Assembly (NCBI RefSeq): GCF_003334305.1
Contig: NZ_QOWS01000013.1
Strand: one strand, 5' to 3'
Length of the DNA: 64,000 nucleotides
From: Escherichia coli
GTDB lineage: Bacteria > Pseudomonadota > Gammaproteobacteria > Enterobacterales > Enterobacteriaceae
The translations under genes were made by a program, and so were the position numbers. Of the stretch, positions 27,951 to 63,322 are shown in pieces. Within the stretch, counting starts at the first letter, position 1, and each line of letters opens with the position of its first letter. The notes beneath the pieces are model-generated. The model made no database searches. It was not told where the DNA came from and worked only from the letters and a program-made list of their open reading frames with translations.

Positions 27951-29280
27951 TCGTAAATATTTCGGTACCGATGGGATTCGTGGTCGTGTAGGGGATGCGC
28001 CGATCACACCTGATTTTGTGCTTAAGCTGGGTTGGGCCGCGGGTAAAGTGCTGGCGCGCCACGGCTCCCGTAAGATTATTATTGGTAAAGACACGCGTAT
28101 TTCTGGCTATATGCTGGAGTCAGCACTGGAAGCGGGTCTGGCGGCAGCGGGCCTTTCCGCACTCTTCACTGGCCCGATGCCAACACCGGCCGTGGCTTAT
28201 CTGACGCGTACCTTCCGCGCAGAGGCCGGAATTGTGATATCTGCATCGCATAACCCGTTCTACGATAATGGCATTAAATTCTTCTCTATCGACGGCACCA
28301 AACTGCCGGATGCGGTAGAAGAGGCCATCGAAGCGGAAATGGAAAAGGAGATCAGCTGCGTTGATTCGGCAGAACTGGGTAAAGCCAGCCGTATCGTTGA
28401 TGCCGCGGGTCGCTATATCGAGTTTTGCAAAGCCACGTTCCCGAACGAACTTAGCCTCAGTGAACTGAAGATTGTGGTGGATTGTGCAAACGGTGCGACT
28501 TATCACATCGCGCCGAACGTGCTGCGCGAACTGGGGGCGAACGTTATCGCTATCGGTTGTGAGCCAAACGGTGTAAACATCAATGCCGAAGTGGGGGCTA
28601 CCGACGTTCGCGCGCTCCAGGCTCGTGTGCTGGCTGAAAAAGCGGATCTCGGTATTGCCTTCGACGGCGATGGCGATCGCGTGATTATGGTTGACCATGA
28701 AGGCAATAAAGTCGATGGCGATCAGATCATGTATATCATCGCGCGTGAAGGTCTTCGTCAGGGCCAGCTGCGTGGTGGCGCTGTGGGTACATTGATGAGC
28801 AACATGGGGCTTGAACTGGCGCTGAAACAGTTAGGAATTCCATTTGCGCGCGCGAAAGTGGGTGACCGCTACGTACTGGAAAAAATGCAGGAGAAAGGCT
28901 GGCGTATCGGTGCAGAGAATTCCGGTCATGTGATCCTGCTGGATAAAACTACTACCGGTGACGGCATCGTTGCTGGCTTGCAGGTGCTGGCGGCGATGGC
29001 ACGTAACCATATGAGCCTGCACGACCTTTGCAGCGGCATGAAAATGTTCCCGCAGATTCTGGTTAACGTACGTTACACCGCAGGTAGCGGCGATCCACTT
29101 GAGCATGAGTCAGTTAAAGCCGTGACCGCAGAGGTTGAAGCTGCGCTGGGCAACCGTGGACGCGTGTTGCTGCGTAAATCCGGCACCGAACCGTTAATTC
29201 GCGTGATGGTGGAAGGCGAAGACGAAGCGCAGGTGACTGAATTTGCACACCGCATCGCCGATGCAGTAAAAGCCGTTTAA
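27943..29280 (+). CDS. glmM: Phosphoglucosamine mutase GlmM, 445 aa
   Basis: Active-site motif SASHNP in the translation; 8-nt overlap with folP. Confidence 0.96.
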
Positions 29281-29298
29281 AGCGTTAGATAACTGGCT

Positions 29299-29327
29299 AA
29301 AAAGGCGGCGATTGTCGCCTTTTTTCT
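29299..29327 (+). terminator. Rho-independent terminator after glmM
   Basis: Hairpin GGCGGCGATTGTCGCC followed by T6. Confidence 0.7.
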
Positions 29328-29507
29328 CAGCGAACACATCGGTTTTGCTGTTTTTTTCCGCAGTTGATACAATGCGATAAAATTGCCCTTGCGAAGGTCA
29401 TTCGCTTTGGTTAGTATTCACACCCGCTTCAGTGGGAAAGATTAAAAACTCCCGCTTTATTGGTTGAAGCATTGGTACGCGGCAACTCCGCAAGGAACAG
29501 GTTGATT

Positions 29508-29840
29508 ATGTACGAAGCTCTTTTAGTAGTTTTCCTTATTGTGGCAATTGGCCTTGTTGGTCTGATCATGCTGCAGCAAGGTAAAGGCGCTGATATGGGA
29601 GCCTCCTTCGGAGCAGGCGCTTCCGCTACGCTGTTTGGTTCAAGTGGTTCTGGTAACTTCATGACCCGCATGACGGCGCTGCTGGCAACGTTATTCTTCA
29701 TCATCAGTCTGGTGCTGGGTAACATCAATAGCAACAAAACCAATAAAGGTAGCGAATGGGAAAATCTGAGTGCACCGGTGAAAACCGAACAAACCCAACC
29801 AGCTGCTCCGGCTAAGCCGACCAGCGATATCCCGAACTAA
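29508..29840 (+). CDS. secG: Protein translocase subunit SecG, 110 aa
   Basis: Start at the internal Met MYEALLVVFLIVAIGLVGLIML; ORF-track start at 29460 rejected. Confidence 0.95.
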   Translation: MYEALLVVFLIVAIGLVGLIMLQQGKGADMGASFGAGASATLFGSSGSGNFMTRMTALLATLFFIISLVLGNINSNKTNKGSEWENLSAPVKTEQTQPAAPAKPTSDIPN

Positions 29841-29854
29841 AAAGTAGTATCCGT

Positions 29855-29941
29855 GCCGAGGTGGTGGAATTGGTAGACACGCTACCTTGAGGTGGTAGTG
29901 CCCAATAGGGCTTACGGGTTCAAGTCCCGTCCTCGGTACCA
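29855..29941 (+). tRNA. leuU: tRNA-Leu (anticodon GAG), 87 nt, class II with long variable arm
   Basis: Sequence GCCGAGGTGGTGGAATTGGTAGACACGCTACCTTGAGGTGGTAG...GTCCTCGGTACCA with the anticodon loop CTTGAGG and an encoded CCA end. Confidence 0.95.
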
Positions 29942-29950
29942 AATTCCAGA

Positions 29951-29978
29951 AAAGAGACGCTGAAAAGCGTCTTTTTTC
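29951..29978 (+). terminator. Rho-independent terminator after leuU
   Basis: Hairpin AGACGCTGAAAAGCGTCT followed by T6. Confidence 0.75.
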
Positions 29979-30397
29979 GTTTTGGTCCTGGTCTGAGGAA
30001 TGGTTGTCAGGTATCTGTATCTCGTCCAGTTGCTTTACTCGTAGCTGGTACCTTGAAACGATGGTGCCGGTACGCCTTAGTTATAAACTTTTCCCTTCTG
30101 CTGACATAATTGGCACTTTATTGTGTCAACTCCAGTTCCGGTACGAATACGGATATGTTTACTTCTCGATAAACCATCCTGCTCCTGTCAGTATAACTAC
30201 TGATGGCTACGTTCTGCGTAATGTTTAGAGACGCATTGATAATGTTATTTAATTACTGAGAACAATGGCCGCATCATTTAAAAAGAAAAAACTAACAGTG
30301 TTTCGGTCTGATATGGATCAGAGTTGAAAAACATGTCTGATATAAAATTGAACATTGTTGATAATTGTTTATATTGGTTGTGAACTTGGATTTCTGG

Positions 30398-32023
30398 ATG
30401 ACAGTATTCAACAAATTTGCTAGAAGTTTTAAATCTCATTGGTTGTTGTATCTTTGTGTTATTGTTTTTGGTATTACGAACTTAGTCGCCTCTTCCGGAG
30501 CGCATATGGTTCAGCGATTGCTGTTCTTCGTCCTGACCATCCTGGTTGTTAAACGTATATCATCCCTTCCGCTTCGCCTGCTTGTTGCCGCACCATTTGT
30601 GTTACTGACTGCGGCAGACATGAGTATTAGCCTCTATTCATGGTGTACCTTTGGTACAACTTTCAATGATGGATTTGCGATTAGTGTGCTGCAGAGTGAT
30701 CCGGATGAAGTTGTCAAAATGCTGGGGATGTATATCCCTTATCTATGTGCTTTTGCTTTTTTATCCCTTCTTTTTTTGGCAGTAATAATAAAATATGATG
30801 TTTCCTTGCCGACAAAAAAAGTGACAGGAATATTATTGCTGATTGTCATTTCGGGCAGTTTATTTTCCGCTTGTCAATTTGCTTATAAAGATGCAAAAAA
30901 TAAAAAAGCGTTCAGTCCATATATACTAGCGTCGCGATTTGCTACCTATACGCCGTTTTTTAATCTCAACTATTTTGCTTTAGCAGCGAAAGAGCATCAA
31001 AGATTACTCTCAATTGCAAACACGGTGCCGTATTTTCAATTATCAGTCAGGGATACAGGTATTGATACCTACGTGTTGATTGTGGGGGAGTCTGTACGTG
31101 TCGACAATATGTCTTTGTATGGATATACACGCTCTACGACACCGCAAGTTGAAGCACAAAGAAAACAGATCAAACTGTTTAATCAAGCAATAAGCGGCGC
31201 ACCTTACACTGCGCTGTCGGTTCCCCTTTCTTTAACTGCTGATTCTGTTTTGAGTCATGACATTCATAATTACCCCGACAACATTATTAATATGGCTAAT
31301 CAAGCAGGATTTCAGACTTTCTGGCTAAGCTCGCAATCCGCTTTTCGGCAGAATGGTACAGCAGTTACCAGTATCGCCATGCGCGCCATGGAAACAGTCT
31401 ATGTCAGAGGATTTGATGAATTGTTGTTGCCGCATTTATCGCAAGCGTTACAGCAAAAGACGCAGCAAAAGAAACTGATTGTTCTTCATTTAAATGGAAG
31501 CCATGAACCGGCTTGTAGCGCCTATCCGCAATCCAGCGCCGTGTTTCAACCGCAGGACGATCAGGATGCCTGCTATGACAACTCCATTCATTACACAGAC
31601 AGTTTGCTAGGTCAGGTTTTTGAATTATTAAAAGATCGCCGCGCCTCGGTCATGTATTTTGCCGACCACGGCCTGGAACGCGACCCTACGAAGAAGAACG
31701 TCTATTTTCATGGAGGCAGGGAGGCCAGCCAGCAGGCATATCATGTCCCGATGTTTATCTGGTATAGCCCCGTTCTTGGGGATGGCGTGGATCGCACAAC
31801 AGAAAACGATATCTTTTCCACTGCGTACAATAATTACCTTATTAATGCGTGGATGGGGGTAACAAAGCCGGAACAGCCGCAAACGCTGGAGGAAGTGATT
31901 GCACACTATAAAGGAGACTCACGGGTTGTGGATGCAAACCATGATGTTTTCGATTATGTGATGCTCAGAAAGGAGTTTACAGAGGATAAGCAAGGTAACC
32001 CCACCCCTGAAGGGCAGGGTTGA
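30398..32023 (+). CDS. yhbX: Sulfatase / phosphoethanolamine-transferase-family inner membrane protein YhbX, 541 aa
   Basis: N-terminal TM segments followed by an alkaline-phosphatase-like domain; coding sequence is visibly AT-rich; start at the internal Met MTVFNKFARSF. Confidence 0.88.
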   Translation: MTVFNKFARSFKSHWLLYLCVIVFGITNLVASSGAHMVQRLLFFVLTILVVKRISSLPLRLLVAAPFVLLTAADMSISLYSWCTFGTTFNDGFAISVLQSDPDEVVKMLGMYIPYLCAFAFLSLLFLAVIIKYDVSLPTKKVTGILLLIVISGSLFSACQFAYKDAKNKKAFSPYILASRFATYTPFFNLNYFALAAKEHQRLLSIANTVPYFQLSVRDTGIDTYVLIVGESVRVDNMSLYGYTRSTTPQVEAQRKQIKLFNQAISGAPYTALSVPLSLTADSVLSHDIHNYPDNIINMANQAGFQTFWLSSQSAFRQNGTAVTSIAMRAMETVYVRGFDELLLPHLSQALQQKTQQKKLIVLHLNGSHEPACSAYPQSSAVFQPQDDQDACYDNSIHYTDSLLGQVFELLKDRRASVMYFADHGLERDPTKKNVYFHGGREASQQAYHVPMFIWYSPVLGDGVDRTTENDIFSTAYNNYLINAWMGVTKPEQPQTLEEVIAHYKGDSRVVDANHDVFDYVMLRKEFTEDKQGNPTPEGQG

Positions 32024-32030
32024 TGTCGAA

Positions 32031-33389
<1,359 letters not shown>

Positions 33390-33425
33390 TTAATTAACTG
33401 ATGATGAGCCTGGATTTCCGCTCTC

Positions 33426-33445
33426 ACTGAATTTTTATGCAAAAT
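33426..33445. promoter_or_regulatory. Putative ARG box (ArgR operator half of the argG control region)
   Basis: cTGAATttttATGCAaa fits the ARG-box consensus TGAAT-N4-ATTCA with one mismatch. Confidence 0.4.
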
Positions 33446-33559
33446 AAATGAGTTTTCATTTAATCATCTTTTATCGGAGACAGGAAGAGTTTAGTGTGTT
33501 TTTTGTAAAATAATGCGCTTAAGGGAGAGCAGGAGAAGGCAAAAGTATTCAACAAATGA

Positions 33560-33585
33560 AAGTGAATTGGATATTCATTCACGTG
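33560..33585. promoter_or_regulatory. Putative ARG box pair upstream of argG
   Basis: Palindromic gTGAATtggatATTCAttcac; on the argG strand it reads TGAATgaatATCCA, close to the ARG-box consensus. Confidence 0.4.
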
Positions 33586-33721
33586 ATTAGCAATAAACGT
33601 TGACAAAATGTGGCATGGATCACTATAATGCCTGCAGATTTTACGTCCCGTCTCGGTACACCAAATCCCAGCAGTATTTGCATCTTTTACCCAAAACGAG
33701 TAGAATTTGCCACGTTTCAGG

Positions 33722-33798
<77 letters not shown>

Positions 33799-33919
33799 CT
33801 TTCCCTTAGAGTCCTTTTTCAAATATACTGTGAAGACTTCGGCCTTCGTAGTGGGATTTGAAAAAATCCTTCTGGAAAGTGCTCCAGACCGCAGTTGCGG
33901 TTATAGGGTTCAGTTATAT

Positions 33920-33946
33920 AAAGCCCCGATTTATCGGGGTTTTTTG
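33920..33946 (+). terminator. Leader terminator/attenuator hairpin between metY and rimP
   Basis: Hairpin AGCCCCGATTTATCGGGGT followed by T6. Confidence 0.65.
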
Positions 33947-33967
33947 TTATCTGACTACAGAATAACT

Positions 33968-33987
33968 GGGCTTTAAGCCCTTTTTTT
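33968..33987 (+). terminator. Second hairpin with T tract immediately upstream of rimP
   Basis: GGGCTTTAAGCCC followed by T7; a tandem arrangement with the preceding hairpin. Confidence 0.45.
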
Positions 33988-34004
33988 ATGTCTTGGGGGT
34001 GGGC

Positions 34005-34457
34005 TTGTCCACATTAGAGCAAAAATTAACAGAGATGATTACTGCGCCAGTTGAGGCCCTGGGTTTTGAACTGGTTGGCATCGAATTTATTCGCGGTCGC
34101 ACATCCACACTGCGCATCTATATTGATAGTGAAGATGGCATCAATGTTGATGATTGTGCTGATGTGAGCCACCAGGTAAGTGCTGTGCTGGATGTTGAAG
34201 ATCCCATCACCGTTGCTTATAACCTGGAAGTCTCCTCACCGGGTCTCGATCGCCCACTGTTCACGGCTGAACACTACGCCCGTTTTGTCGGAGAAGAGGT
34301 GACTCTGGTTCTCCGTATGGCGGTACAAAACCGTCGTAAATGGCAGGGCGTTATCAAAGCGGTAGACGGTGAAATGATCACAGTTACCGTCGAAGGTAAA
34401 GATGAAGTGTTCGCGCTGAGTAATATCCAGAAGGCGAACCTGGTTCCCCACTTTTAA
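34005..34457 (+). CDS. rimP: Ribosome maturation factor RimP (YhbC), 150 aa, TTG start
   Basis: Translation (M)[24 protein letters not shown] beginning at a TTG codon; the ORF track begins at another TTG 12 nt upstream. Confidence 0.88.
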
Positions 34458-60805: not shown

Positions 60806-63322
60806 TTAATGGCACTGCGCCGTGCCTTGTAATACAGAGGTTGTTGGTTCTGAATCCGGTGTACTAAAAGCAAACTGACATTGTTGATCTGCCTGATTTC
60901 CCCAGCGTACAGTCCAGCTTTGTGATTTACTCGATATCCCAGAGAGATATAGTATGCCGCCCTCATCGACGATACTTTGTTGCCCCGTCTCATCGTTGCT
61001 GGCAAGAGCGCCAAAGGGCAACGGTTTACCGTTGCGATCGCTGACTGTAACAAGTACGCGATAACCGATATTGGCGTTGAAACGCGCCGCTACCATTGCA
61101 CCTCTGTTGGGCACCACAAACTGTGTTGTTTGTTCAAGATCGACGTTATCGGGCAGCTGCGTAGTATCTACCGAGAGACGGTTTTCCTGGTAAGTCGTGA
61201 GATAAGGAACCACTGCATAGCCAAAGGGATCAGTAGCAATCCCCGGATAGTTTTGTATCCTCACGCCAGAAGCCCCATTAGCATCGATAAGCGCAAAAGC
61301 GTTGCCCAGATATTGCGAGAGCGTCACGCCATGAGGATGGATAACCACGCCGCCGGTAACGCCGTAATTGTATTGGCTGCTGTCATTACCGTAGCTGTAT
61401 CCGGCACTGAAGGTGCCATAAGGTGAACGGTAACTGGCGTTCAGGCTACTGTTATGGTTGTTATCGTCATCCAGACTTTGTTCCAGGCTATAGCTCAGGC
61501 GACCATCATCCAGCAGTGAGCCATCAAGACGCATTTCATGTTGGGTTGGGCGATCTTTCTGGCTGGTCATCTGATAGGAAACCCGGCTACGCGGTAACCA
61601 GCGTTCTAACGGAATACTGAGATTCAAAGAGAGTGCACGGTCATTATTTTCATCAGTGTAGCGGCTGTATTGATAATTCAGGCTGTAACCAATTCCCCAT
61701 TGCTGGCCGGAAACCCCAACAGAGATATTCCTGTTTTTCTCGTTATTGCCCCAATAGTCTTGCTGCGAACCGGAGGCATACAGACTTACCCCATCAAATA
61801 TTGTCTGGCTGATGTTGAATTGAATTTCACTTTTTTGGCGACTGTTATAGTCCCAATTGCGGGTATTGGCTTCATCAAAACTAAAATAGCCATCGTTGGT
61901 ATAGCGATAGTAGCTAACAGCGATATTGGTGTTGGTTTCCGGGATATCTTTGATGTACTGCGTACGCCATTGATAGCCATGAAAAGAGTGCTGGTTATCG
62001 AATTGGGTGTCAGCTCTGTTGATATCCATCGACAACGCGCCCAGTGCGCCAAGTGTGCCGCCGATACCGATCCCCAGCGCATAATAATCTTCAGAACCGA
62101 GCAGGCCGCCATACAGCGTAAAAGTATTATTCAAACCATATATTGCCGTGGCTTCAGCAAATTCTGGTTCCTTGCTATCACTGTTTGCATCAGCGCGATA
62201 GCGTCCAGCGGTCGCGCTATATTTTAGATGCCCAGGTCGCTGCATCATGGGTAATGAAGAATAAGGCTGGATAAAGCGACGTTGTGTACCGTCACTTTCT
62301 TCAATCGTGACTTCTAAATCGCCGCTGTTGGAAGAGGGGTAGAGATCGTTAATTTCAAAGGCACCCGCTGGCACGTTGCTTTGATAGATCACATAACCAT
62401 TTTGCCTGATAGTCACGATTGCACTACTGTTTGCGATACCGCGTACCGTTGGGGCAAATCCGCGCTGGCTGTTTGGCAACATATTATCGTCGGAAGCGAG
62501 TTGCACGCCAGTAAAGGTGTAGCTGGAAAAAATACTGCCGCTGGTGGCGCTTTCTCCCAGAAGCAACTGAGACTTCAACGCCTTGATATCACGTTGTAAA
62601 TAACTACTGATAGTGTTCCAGCTTGACGCCTGATCGTTGCGTGTCCACGTAGAATAGTTACGTAATCGCCAGGGGCCAAAATTAGCACCATTTTGCATAT
62701 TCAGGTACTGTCGTTGGCTACGATTGCCCTGGCGGTAACGGTTATCAGAACCTGTAAACGAGTAGTTGGTAAACAGCGTTGGTATACCATCGTCCCAACG
62801 AGAAGGGGAGACGTAACCTCTTGCATCACGGTACAGTGCAATTTGGGGAATGCTCAAATTAAGTCGCTGATGATTGAAATCAAATTCAGCAGCTGTACCG
62901 GGAATGATTTGTTCAAGCGAGTTGATCACGCTATCGTCATCTTTTTCAGCCAGCGCCGGGATTTCATCCACCTTAATACCCAGCTCACGTAGTTGTTCTA
63001 CCGTAAACTGTGGCTGCAGAAGTTGCTCTGCATTGGCGGTAAATGTAATTTTTTTCTGTGAAACCTTCTTTTTATTCAGCCAGATATCAACCTGATAAGT
63101 TCCTGGTAGTTGTGCGTATTTTTTTGAAAAACGTGACAGATCAGTTGTTTGCATACCACTTTTTGTAGTTTCCAGCATAATGGGGTCGAAATAATACTCT
63201 TCGGCGTTAGCGGTAGTGCAAAGCATGCCGCTGCCAGTGAGCACCATCGGCAAACAGCGTTTGATGATGAGCGCCAACTGTTTCGGTGTGCGTTTATGTC
63301 CCTGGTGGTGTCGTTGTGGCAT
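60806..63322 (-). CDS. yraJ: Outer-membrane fimbrial usher YraJ, 838 aa
   Basis: FimD/PapC-like usher length and translation; sits between the chaperone and adhesin genes. Confidence 0.93.
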   Translation of the reverse strand: MPQRHHQGHKRTPKQLALIIKRCLPMVLTGSGMLCTTANAEEYYFDPIMLETTKSGMQTTDLSRFSKKYAQLPGTYQVDIWLNKKKVSQKKITFTANAEQLLQPQFTVEQLRELGIKVDEIPALAEKDDDSVINSLEQIIPGTAAEFDFNHQRLNLSIPQIALYRDARGYVSPSRWDDGIPTLFTNYSFTGSDNRYRQGNRSQRQYLNMQNGANFGPWRLRNYSTWTRNDQASSWNTISSYLQRDIKALKSQLLLGESATSGSIFSSYTFTGVQLASDDNMLPNSQRGFAPTVRGIANSSAIVTIRQNGYVIYQSNVPAGAFEINDLYPSSNSGDLEVTIEESDGTQRRFIQPYSSLPMMQRPGHLKYSATAGRYRADANSDSKEPEFAEATAIYGLNNTFTLYGGLLGSEDYYALGIGIGGTLGALGALSMDINRADTQFDNQHSFHGYQWRTQYIKDIPETNTNIAVSYYRYTNDGYFSFDEANTRNWDYNSRQKSEIQFNISQTIFDGVSLYASGSQQDYWGNNEKNRNISVGVSGQQWGIGYSLNYQYSRYTDENNDRALSLNLSIPLERWLPRSRVSYQMTSQKDRPTQHEMRLDGSLLDDGRLSYSLEQSLDDDNNHNSSLNASYRSPYGTFSAGYSYGNDSSQYNYGVTGGVVIHPHGVTLSQYLGNAFALIDANGASGVRIQNYPGIATDPFGYAVVPYLTTYQENRLSVDTTQLPDNVDLEQTTQFVVPNRGAMVAARFNANIGYRVLVTVSDRNGKPLPFGALASNDETGQQSIVDEGGILYLSGISSKSQSWTVRWGNQADQQCQFAFSTPDSEPTTSVLQGTAQCH

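Follow-up and report, generated by a model that had tools for sequence, protein, structure and literature searches.

Is the AT-rich yhbX gene of Escherichia coli, which lies beside the tRNA gene leuU, what is left of an island that entered the chromosome through that tRNA gene, and what does its product do? A preliminary description of the locus had read it as an old, horizontally acquired single-gene islet at positions 29942-32030, with leuU as a likely integration site. We analysed this reading in a 64,000-nucleotide stretch of E. coli DNA (the window) and by comparison with other genomes. Our analyses make it probable that the segment 29984-32029 was acquired horizontally as a cassette of one gene, in place of an older resident HTH gene, and that YhbX works in the inner membrane as an enzyme of the phosphoethanolamine (pEtN) transferase superfamily, with the LPS core or inner core as the likeliest acceptor class. 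The features of the locus are as follows.

29508..29840, + strand: secG, the conserved left flank (ORF and RefSeq annotation)
29855-29941, + strand: leuU, tRNA-Leu(GAG) (ARAGORN; Rfam tRNA match of 52.8 bits)
29949-29983, + strand: leuU intrinsic terminator, a 13-bp stem followed by a T-run (terminator scan)
29984..32029, no strand: variable cassette or yhbX islet, 2046 bp, 42.5% GC (haplotype comparison across E. coli genomes)
29984..30397, + strand: AT-rich spacer upstream of yhbX, 414 bp, 38.9% GC, the presumed yhbX promoter and 5' UTR
30398..32023, + strand: yhbX CDS, 541 aa plus stop, approximately five N-terminal TM helices and then a sulfatase-fold domain
32024..32030, no strand: yhbX/argG gap, 7 nt between convergent stop codons (sequence; terminator scan)
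32031-33374, - strand: argG, the conserved right flank (ORF and annotation)

The yhbX ORF is intact in the window, and E. coli strain A7 is 100% identical to the window over 29400-33500. In 29984-32029 there is no second substantial ORF and no integrase. The only ATG ORF in the spacer (30265-30327) is frameshifted in another allele and was rejected as a small coding ORF. An Rfam search of 29000-34200 at a permissive threshold passed two tRNAs and the rimP leader, none of them in the spacer. Promoter-like hexamers were seen at 30337-30375 in a scan that did not exceed chance (6 found, 5.1 expected), and the spacer RNA folds mildly better than shuffled sequence (z = -2.2).

The earlier observation that yhbX and its upstream spacer are more AT-rich than secG and argG was borne out by windowed GC, GC3 and codon adaptation. 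In 300-nt windows, GC was 0.33 to 0.44 across 30050-31400 vs 0.50 to 0.57 in glmM/secG and argG, and the spacer at 29942-30397 had a GC content of 38.6%. The GC (0.434) and GC3 (0.430) of yhbX were each the lowest among the 57 ORFs in the window, for which the means were 0.521 (sd 0.029) and 0.557 (sd 0.049), corresponding to z of approximately -3.0 and -2.6. Its CAI, referenced to the window, was the third lowest (0.577 vs a mean of 0.692, sd 0.065). Neither the GC content nor the codon usage of yhbX is therefore like that of its neighbours and, since GC3 is also low, the bias cannot be put down to amino acids alone.

A haplotype survey of 5426 complete E. coli genomes was used to define the variable segment. 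The slot between leuU and argG holds yhbX in 5179 of them, and 5167 of these 5179 keep at least 80% of the islet. Another 237 genomes carry an alternative AT-rich cassette of 1.17 kb, which contains a gene for a 317-aa XRE-type HTH protein and the argG terminator and has junctions identical to those of the yhbX cassette. A single genome, that of E. coli E7-1N7, has a 230-bp decayed remnant of the HTH cassette. Neither cassette is present in the remaining nine; in the one of these that was examined, the leuU terminator is interrupted by an aminoglycoside-resistance region flanked by IS26. The yhbX and HTH cassettes are two mutually exclusive AT-rich occupants of the slot. A few E. coli genomes carry IS insertions or truncations in yhbX. 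The scrambled locus of strain IR53017, with many frameshifted pseudogenes, was taken as an assembly problem.

The flanks are shared by all of these haplotypes. argG is at least 95% identical in 5426 of 5426 genomes, and the left flanks of the yhbX and HTH haplotypes differ by only 3 mismatches over 1084 nt. Homology between haplotypes stops at 29983, placing the left junction at 29983/29984, while the right junction is a single base short of the stop codon of argG. The islet boundaries first proposed thus needed adjustment at their ends: the variable segment is 29984-32029, and the first 42 nt after leuU, with the leuU terminator, are common to all haplotypes. Its description as a single-gene islet held, in that yhbX is the one substantial ORF, is atypical in composition and is not universal at the locus. 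A search for HTH-cassette remnants inside the yhbX islet, at the DNA level and by tblastn with five orthologues, matched only the common leuU terminator.

The suggestion that leuU had served as the integration site did not survive closer analysis. The tRNA gene is indeed adjacent to the islet, as described, and the islet resembles the tRNA-associated islands with P4-type integrases at leuX, pheV and selC in its position, its atypical composition and its variability among strains. Unlike these, it is only 2 kb long with one gene, has no integrase or direct repeats and was inserted outside the tRNA. A comparison of 29895-29983 with 29984-32200 gave no exact match of 10 nt or longer and no 16-mer with two or fewer mismatches, and in a repeat-family search, too, the leuU 3' end was not seen to be directly repeated, either near 32030, where a copy had been anticipated, or elsewhere in the islet. 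A 20-nt, 75% match of the leuU anticodon arm to 30049-30068 was considered as a tRNA remnant and rejected as chance level; in Smith-Waterman alignments of leuU with the spacer, 124 of 500 shuffles scored as well. Since neither an integrase nor a leuU 3' repeat is present, and the tRNA 3' end is separated from the junction by 42 nt that include the leuU terminator, tRNA-targeted integration is not supported. An integrase-bearing element that entered the leuU 3' end could have lost its integrase and att sites later, leaving yhbX behind, and YhbX-like genes elsewhere do travel on integrase- or AlpA-bearing islands. This history is largely refuted by the same observations, as well as by the unrelated HTH cassette, which is syntenic in five lineages and bounded by the same junctions, and we regard it as very improbable.

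Other species were examined for the content of the same slot. A genome scan around leuU listed 80 other Enterobacterales species, none of them Escherichia or Salmonella, and among the matches listed YhbX was found within 6 kb of leuU in 0 of the 80. In approximately 20 other Enterobacteriaceae among the species listed, argG follows only 120 to 300 bp after leuU, and several others carry unrelated inserts of 1.7 to 5 kb between the two genes. In 17 other species with a short spacer between leuU and argG, that spacer showed no HTH remnants. One YhbX protein search listed near-identical E. coli sequences and no outgroups; the outgroups E. marmotae, Salmonella enterica, Citrobacter koseri and Enterobacter sp. 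were reached through HTH protein matches. Their HTH orthologues, located between argG and secG/leuU, have amino-acid identities of 89%, 71% (one member sequence on at least 1000 contigs), 72% and 68%, respectively. yhbX is not in the slot in E. marmotae, Salmonella or C. koseri, and in a published tree YhbX is missing from LT2 and C. rodentium (PMC4013655). The left-junction sequence is homologous between E. coli and E. marmotae.

Universal conservation of yhbX at this site can therefore be set aside, given its absence from 4.6% of E. coli and from the other Enterobacterales compared. yhbX is atypical in composition, varies in presence within E. coli and is missing from the corresponding site in relatives, all of which mark it as an accessory, horizontally acquired cassette. 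Its AT-richness alone cannot date the acquisition, since the HTH cassette, apparently the older resident, is equally AT-rich (37 to 40% GC) across five lineages. PADLOC gave only weak matches for the HTH protein, in the HTH region.

Because HTH orthologues occupy the slot in the four outgroups and approximately 20 other species have only a short spacer, the likeliest course is that yhbX took the place of an older resident within the E. coli lineage. The leuU-argG slot would have undergone repeated gene swaps in Enterobacteriaceae and, in an ancestor of most E. coli, the yhbX cassette would have replaced both the HTH gene and the argG terminator, the exchanged stretch starting exactly where the leuU terminator ends and reaching to the stop codon of argG. 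Illegitimate recombination, not tRNA-targeted site-specific recombination, is the probable mode of the original insertion, and the coexisting alleles may since have been exchanged by homologous recombination in the secG-leuU and argG flanks. Which cassette replaced which is judged by parsimony, as E. albertii, E. fergusonii and the cryptic clades I-IV lie outside the sample. The HTH family is widespread across Proteobacteria at approximately 55% identity, and there may have been independent HTH insertions into the slot. No donor of yhbX was found; the nearest full-length relatives beyond E. coli are 37 to 49% identical. Between E. coli lineages, yhbX has a dS of 0.05 to 0.07 and a dN/dS of 0.05 to 0.24, with the ORF intact in 4 of 4 alleles compared, while the spacer diverges by p = 0.002 to 0.024. 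The dS and dN/dS values agree with an old acquisition and indicate purifying selection on yhbX. Thus the part of the preliminary description that stands is the old horizontally acquired single-gene islet, and the part that falls is leuU as its point of entry.

Two other histories were weighed against replacement of a resident HTH gene. In one, yhbX is ancestral in the slot, in Escherichia or in Enterobacteriaceae, the HTH gene is a later invader that entered independently or was spread through recombination, and the low GC reflects membrane-protein composition together with local mutation bias. The presence of yhbX in 95% of E. coli fits this scheme, as does an HTH family so widespread that it could be mobile, and the AT-richness of the HTH cassette would make low GC a trait of any slot occupant. 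Outside E. coli/Shigella, however, yhbX was found in the slot in no organism among those compared, its relatives elsewhere are at unrelated loci, and its low GC3 goes beyond amino-acid composition. The HTH identities also roughly track phylogeny and the left junction is homologous with that of E. marmotae, and we consider an ancestral yhbX improbable. In the other, yhbX is a silenced, functionless passenger heading to decay. AT-rich genes such as yhbX are usually silenced by H-NS, and the gene is interrupted or truncated in a few genomes. Strain engineers also treat the yhbX locus as a neutral site for insertions (PMC12421378). Already disfavoured by the low dN/dS and the intact alleles, and further by retention of most of the islet in nearly all yhbX-bearing genomes, conservation of every catalytic residue (see below) and envelope-type phenotypes of yhbX knock-outs (PMC4551910, PMC9765716), a decaying passenger is to us a very slight prospect. 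We continue below with yhbX as a replacement cassette with a functional product.

The assignment of YhbX to the phosphoethanolamine-transferase/sulfatase family was confirmed. Pfam Sulfatase (PF00884) matches residues 224-466 (E = 3e-56), with the Pfam EptA_B_N domain undetected, and PDB searches recovered the catalytic domains of EptC, EptA and MCR-1 (E = 6e-24 to 2e-10). The best PDB match was E. coli EptC (5zzu, 87.8 bits); for this structure and for full-length N. meningitidis EptA (5fgn) E was approximately 1e-23. Residues 41-460 of YhbX align to 56-489 of 5fgn, with HMMER aligning residues 41-223 to its TM domain, and hydropathy peaks are at 16-34, 41-59, 61-79, 113-131 and 144-162. E231 (GES), T271 (APYTAL), H369 (GSHEP), D423-H424 (ADHG) and H438 align with EptA motifs, and the catalytic motifs are invariant in seven relatives. 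The YhbX sequence thus has the fold, the approximately 5-TM domain, and the catalytic Thr, Zn ligands and auxiliary His of the superfamily.

Placement within a named family was not supported. YhbX is under every curated whole-protein cut-off for EptA, EptB, CptA and MCR in NCBIfam. The best scores were for P_eth_NH2_trans (155.7 bits, cut-off 500) and the CptA subfamily (142.7, cut-off 404), followed by EptA (123.1, cut-off 561) and EptB (105, cut-off 493); EptA models overall scored 94 to 156 bits against cut-offs of 500 to 660, and the MCR-1 to MCR-13 models 31 to 71 bits against cut-offs of 1075 to 1250. Acceptor specificity is therefore not transferable from those families. YhbX shares with the lipid A pEtN transferases EptA/PmrC and MCR-1 the N-terminal 5-TM domain, the periplasmic sulfatase-fold domain and the conserved catalytic set, but scores far below their cut-offs, and nothing points to lipid A as acceptor. 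It also resembles EptC/CptA, which transfers pEtN to heptose phosphate of the LPS core, and OpgE/YbiP, which transfers it to periplasmic glucans: EptC is its top PDB match, the CptA subfamily is its second-best NCBIfam match, and a published tree has it alongside YbiP and CptA among the paralogues of E. coli (PMC4013655). Unlike EptC/CptA, it belongs to a distinct, patchy Enterobacterales subfamily with members 37 to 49% identical. PADLOC gave no defence-system match for YhbX. The statement that its substrate is not established also stands: no function is on record (PMC4013655), a search of the literature turned up neither a function nor biochemical data, and published work on the Proteus relative PMI3040 proposes none.

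By analogy with EptA, MCR-1 and EptC, five N-terminal helices would anchor a periplasmic sulfatase-fold domain in the inner membrane, where Thr271, at a Zn site formed by E231, D423 and H424, would accept pEtN from phosphatidylethanolamine and pass it on to an envelope glycoconjugate. Envelope-type phenotypes of ΔyhbX would be compatible with such a role. Relatives of YhbX suggest an acceptor class. In Enterobacter kobei and Cronobacter, relatives with 37 to 38% identity in full-length alignment are found within the waa (LPS core) cluster, where they sit between tdh and waaL or core glycosyltransferases and adjoin waaL or heptosyltransferase genes. Like E. coli yhbX, these YhbX-like pEtN-transferase genes are single genes of the same subfamily with a Sulfatase domain; unlike them, E. 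coli yhbX stands alone between leuU and argG, away from LPS genes. Further relatives adjoin htrL in C. freundii, and those of Citrobacter sp. and Salmonella are carried on islands that are mobile or variable. There is also a 64% identical paralogue on a 62-kb E. coli plasmid, whose upstream region has no homology to the yhbX spacer, and a truncated YhbX-like copy beside an integrase.

Because of the waa-cluster relatives, the LPS core or inner core is most likely the acceptor class, a proposal that draws on the gene neighbourhood of distant relatives. The known pEtN sites of K-12 LPS have, however, already been assigned to EptA, EptB and EptC. YhbX might instead be an active pEtN transferase or a phosphodiesterase-type enzyme with a non-LPS acceptor, such as osmoregulated periplasmic glucans, another periplasmic glycan or a protein. 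The superfamily has members of each such kind, E. coli yhbX is unlinked to LPS genes, and in the published tree OpgE/YbiP and CptA are the E. coli proteins nearest to it (PMC4013655). With the waa-embedded relatives speaking against it, we see a non-LPS acceptor as a serious though clearly less probable option than the LPS core.

The replacement also bears on transcription at the right end of the slot. In the HTH haplotype argG is followed by a hairpin and U-run (-22.6 kcal/mol, z = -3.9), whereas a terminator scan found no terminator between yhbX and argG. Loss of the argG terminator would have left the convergent genes with 7 nt between stop codons and overlapping transcripts. argG-yhbX is among the excludons detected by RNA-seq (PMC12288877), and the arrangement is like that of other convergent-gene excludons. 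Here, the overlap appears to be a side effect of the exchange of cassettes.

The islet is real, but its gene had been annotated before, and it represents a commonplace old horizontal acquisition rather than an island targeted to a tRNA. E. coli K-12 has five pEtN-transferase paralogues, yhbX among them, in a superfamily whose enzymes (EptA, MCR) cause polymyxin resistance and remodel the envelope, and the waa-embedded relatives of YhbX make the LPS core the first place to seek an acceptor. One speculative and rather unlikely possibility is that yhbX and HTH form a long-lived functional dimorphism, in which YhbX adds pEtN at an unassigned envelope position, for example a non-stoichiometric LPS-core site, and the antisense overlap with argG couples yhbX to arginine biosynthesis. 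Such a modification, if real, would change how permeable the cells are, or how sensitive to phages, colicins or antimicrobial peptides. Approximately 4% of E. coli carry a natural yhbX-minus allele, mostly with an intact HTH gene, and could be used as comparison strains. The locus further illustrates that AT-richness beside a tRNA gene does not alone signal integrase-mediated or recent acquisition, as a long-resident gene in the slot is equally AT-rich. Current understanding is unchanged, and yhbX offers a tidy case of how cassettes turn over in an intergenic slot that is not essential.

The interval between leuU and argG (here, the slot) is laid out in the window as follows.

29855-29941, plus strand: leuU, tRNA-Leu(GAG), predicted by ARAGORN
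29949-29983: stem-loop and T-run, the terminator of leuU
30398-32023, plus strand: yhbX, from the RefSeq annotation of an identical strain
32031-33374, minus strand: argG, from the same annotation

Over 29400-33500 the window, which is E. coli, matches strain A7 at 100% identity, and the remaining full-length matches listed are at 97.7-99.7%. Three haplotypes of the slot, carrying yhbX, a helix-turn-helix (HTH) gene or a 230-bp remnant, share sequence through 29983, where the leuU terminator ends, and align again from 32030, the base adjoining the stop codon of argG; the variable unit, or islet, is therefore 29984-32029. Just past argG lie tRNA-fMet (metY, 33722-33798) and a rimP leader (33887-33987; Rfam RF01770, 102.8 bits), a placement that matches expectation for the metY-rimP-nusA-infB operon.

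Slot content was surveyed in 5426 complete E. coli genomes. The islet was present in 5179 (95.4%), at least 80% of it being retained in 5167, and a more sensitive search of the complete genomes found no divergent allele of it at the leuU-argG locus. In 237 genomes (4.4%) its place is taken by a 1168-bp cassette of 37% GC (the HTH cassette), whose minus strand encodes a 317-aa HTH protein and which also supplies argG with a terminator, a hairpin followed by a U-run. The slot of one genome, E. coli E7-1N7, is just 230 bp, in which the terminator and a decayed part of the HTH gene can be recognised, and nine genomes have neither cassette. In one of the nine, strain Z1323CEC0017, an IS26-bounded aminoglycoside-resistance region (L107:9285-18000) with aac(3)-IVa, aph(4)-Ia, aph(3')-I and strAB interrupts the leuU terminator and takes the place of the cassette. 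A chromosomal blaCTX-M-15 insertion close to yhbX has been described in Shigella sonnei (PMC9973847).

The argG terminator is kept in the HTH haplotype, E. marmotae and Salmonella. No terminator follows argG in the yhbX haplotype, where the stop codons of the two convergent genes are separated by 7 nt in the sequence. This terminator-less convergence looks like a side effect of the proposed cassette swap, and an RNA-seq survey includes argG-yhbX among overlapping convergent pairs ("excludons") (PMC12288877).

The preliminary description had called the islet more AT-rich than its flanks, which was correct by windowed GC, GC3 and codon adaptation. GC is 0.33-0.44 between 30050 and 31400 versus 0.50-0.57 on both sides (300-nt windows), and 38.6% in the spacer upstream of yhbX, taken as 29942-30397. 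Of the 57 ORFs in the window, yhbX ranks last in both GC (0.434; mean 0.521, sd 0.029) and GC3 (0.430; mean 0.557, sd 0.049), and its window-referenced codon adaptation is third lowest (0.577 versus a mean of 0.692). Because GC3 is low too, the amino-acid content of a membrane protein would not fully explain the low GC. The HTH gene has 37.5-40% GC in all five lineages compared, so the low GC of this slot has persisted over long periods and does not work as a clock. The second-lowest GC3 in the window (0.478, with GC 0.477) belongs to an 839-aa ORF at 60806-63322 on the minus strand.

It had also been implied that the islet entered at leuU by tRNA-directed integration. This is most likely wrong: the islet contains no ORF other than yhbX, and its left junction lies 42 nt past the tRNA, beyond the leuU terminator. 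A direct repeat of the leuU 3' end, sought near 32030, was absent from 29984-32200, where the leuU 3' half plus terminator has no exact match of at least 10 nt and no 16-mer with up to two mismatches. The lone leuU-like stretch returned by a repeat finder was at chance level (124 of 500 shuffles scored equally well). No traces of the HTH cassette were found inside the yhbX islet. The cassette edges coincide exactly with functional elements of the neighbours, which fits an illegitimate insertion that selection would have trimmed, followed perhaps by allele exchange via the conserved flanks.

Two allele types of leuU emerged when window 29855-29941 was compared with L093, L004, L005, L089 and L091; about nine changes, most of them compensatory, separate the types and fall in the acceptor stem, the variable arm and the T-arm. 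The first occurs in E. coli, Salmonella and C. koseri, and the second in E. marmotae, Enterobacter and, except for the acceptor-stem pair, Citrobacter werkmanii. Since the types are out of step with species relationships, they suggest allele replacement at the leuU locus.

Four yhbX alleles from different lineages are all intact, with dS of 0.05-0.07 and dN/dS of 0.05-0.24. From these values, yhbX is judged to be older than the split of the four lineages and to be maintained by purifying selection. The spacer (29984-30397) differs by 0.2-2.4% among the same lineages versus 5-7% at yhbX synonymous sites, and this several-fold lower divergence suggests a constrained, unannotated regulatory element; the spacer matched no Rfam family and holds no small ORF that is conserved. 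The earlier interpretation as an old, horizontally acquired single-gene islet is upheld.

A scan of species-representative genomes covered at least 80 Enterobacterales species, none of them Escherichia or Salmonella. Among the matches listed, none of the 80 species had a homologue of YhbX or of the HTH protein less than 6 kb from leuU, which, with the 237 E. coli genomes above, supports the view that yhbX is not universal at this locus. argG converges on leuU across a gap of merely 120-300 bp in about 20 of the 80 species listed, and six further species among them have unrelated inserts of 1.7-5 kb, so genes have been gained and lost repeatedly in this slot. These inserts lie in the leuU-argG gaps of L007, L021, L024, L025, L035 and L039. 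The insert holds two genes in Kluyvera, ORFs resembling lipoproteins or outer-membrane proteins in Pluralibacter and an Enterobacteriaceae isolate, and ORFs resembling sugar-transport and glycosidase genes in Entomohabitans.

Orthologues of the HTH gene lie between argG and secG/leuU in four lineages besides E. coli, with amino-acid identities that roughly track phylogeny.

Escherichia marmotae: 89% identity; flanks 91-92% identical to E. coli in DNA
Citrobacter koseri: 72% identity
Salmonella enterica: 71% identity; a common protein there, with one member on at least 1000 contigs
Enterobacter sp.: 68% identity

The left junctions of the E. coli and E. marmotae HTH haplotypes are homologous, TTTTATAAG following the terminator in both. 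Among the members listed, the YhbX 90%-identity cluster consists of sequences named E. coli plus one "multispecies Enterobacteriaceae" entry, and a published pEtN-transferase (phosphoethanolamine-transferase) tree has no YhbX entry for S. enterica LT2 or C. rodentium (PMC4013655). The parsimonious reading of these sequences is that the HTH gene would be the older resident and that yhbX took over the slot in an ancestor of most E. coli, displacing both the HTH gene and the terminator of argG. Within Escherichia, the comparison covered E. coli and E. marmotae.

In the HTH protein (L003:1117-2070, minus strand; also L089, L091, L093 and L104) an XRE-type HTH occupies the N-terminus (Pfam HTH_19, residues 6-42), and the other ~270 residues gave no match in Pfam, NCBIfam, PHROG or PADLOC. 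Homologues with 52-57% identity are widespread in gamma- and beta-proteobacteria, including Pseudomonas, Serratia, Photorhabdus, Massilia and Gallionella, an unusually strong conservation for an uncharacterised regulator.

YhbX (541 aa) has about five N-terminal helices by hydropathy and a Sulfatase domain at residues 224-466 (Pfam, E = 3e-56). Among solved structures its best matches are E. coli EptC (5zzu) and full-length Neisseria EptA (5fgn), and the alignment to EptA spans residues 41-460, membrane domain included. YhbX keeps the motifs that hold the Zn-binding Glu (E231), the Thr nucleophile (T271), H369, D423-H424 and H438, and it scores far under the curated cut-off set for each of the named families (EptA, EptB, CptA, MCR-1 to MCR-13). 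Merely 122 relatives at E <=1e-30 were found among 1.84 billion cluster representatives, the closest full-length ones at 42-48% identity. Those with names are scattered over Cronobacter, Enterobacter, Citrobacter, Kosakonia, Lelliottia, Leclercia, Buttiauxella, Mixta and Pectobacterium, and a smaller cluster in Salmonella has 11 member sequences.

Gene neighbourhoods gave clues to mobility and function. The Citrobacter sp. relative is cargo of an island with AlpA, antirestriction and RadC genes, the Salmonella relative adjoins a VgrG gene and defence genes, and the C. freundii relative adjoins an htrL-family gene. A non-mobilizable 62-kb E. coli plasmid (CP057032.1) carries a full-length paralogue (553 aa, 64% identity, 43.7% GC; L106:438-2099), and some E. 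coli chromosomes have an internally deleted copy beside a tyrosine recombinase near glnH-dps (L084:4833-5637). This fragment probably accounts for most of the ~550 matching places in excess of records in the distant YhbX search.

The Cronobacter and Enterobacter kobei relatives are embedded in the LPS-core (waa) region, flanked by tdh on one side and a WaaL-type ligase or heptosyltransferase-family gene on the other, with hldD and three family-9 glycosyltransferases nearby. Knock-outs of yhbX have surfaced in two screens with an envelope or permeability-type readout (PMC4551910; PMC9765716). Our best guess is that YhbX is a pEtN transferase with the LPS core as acceptor, and an acceptor other than LPS is a serious alternative. 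The family and the gene are already known, and finding two alternative cassettes and relatives inside waa clusters adds useful detail and is no surprise.
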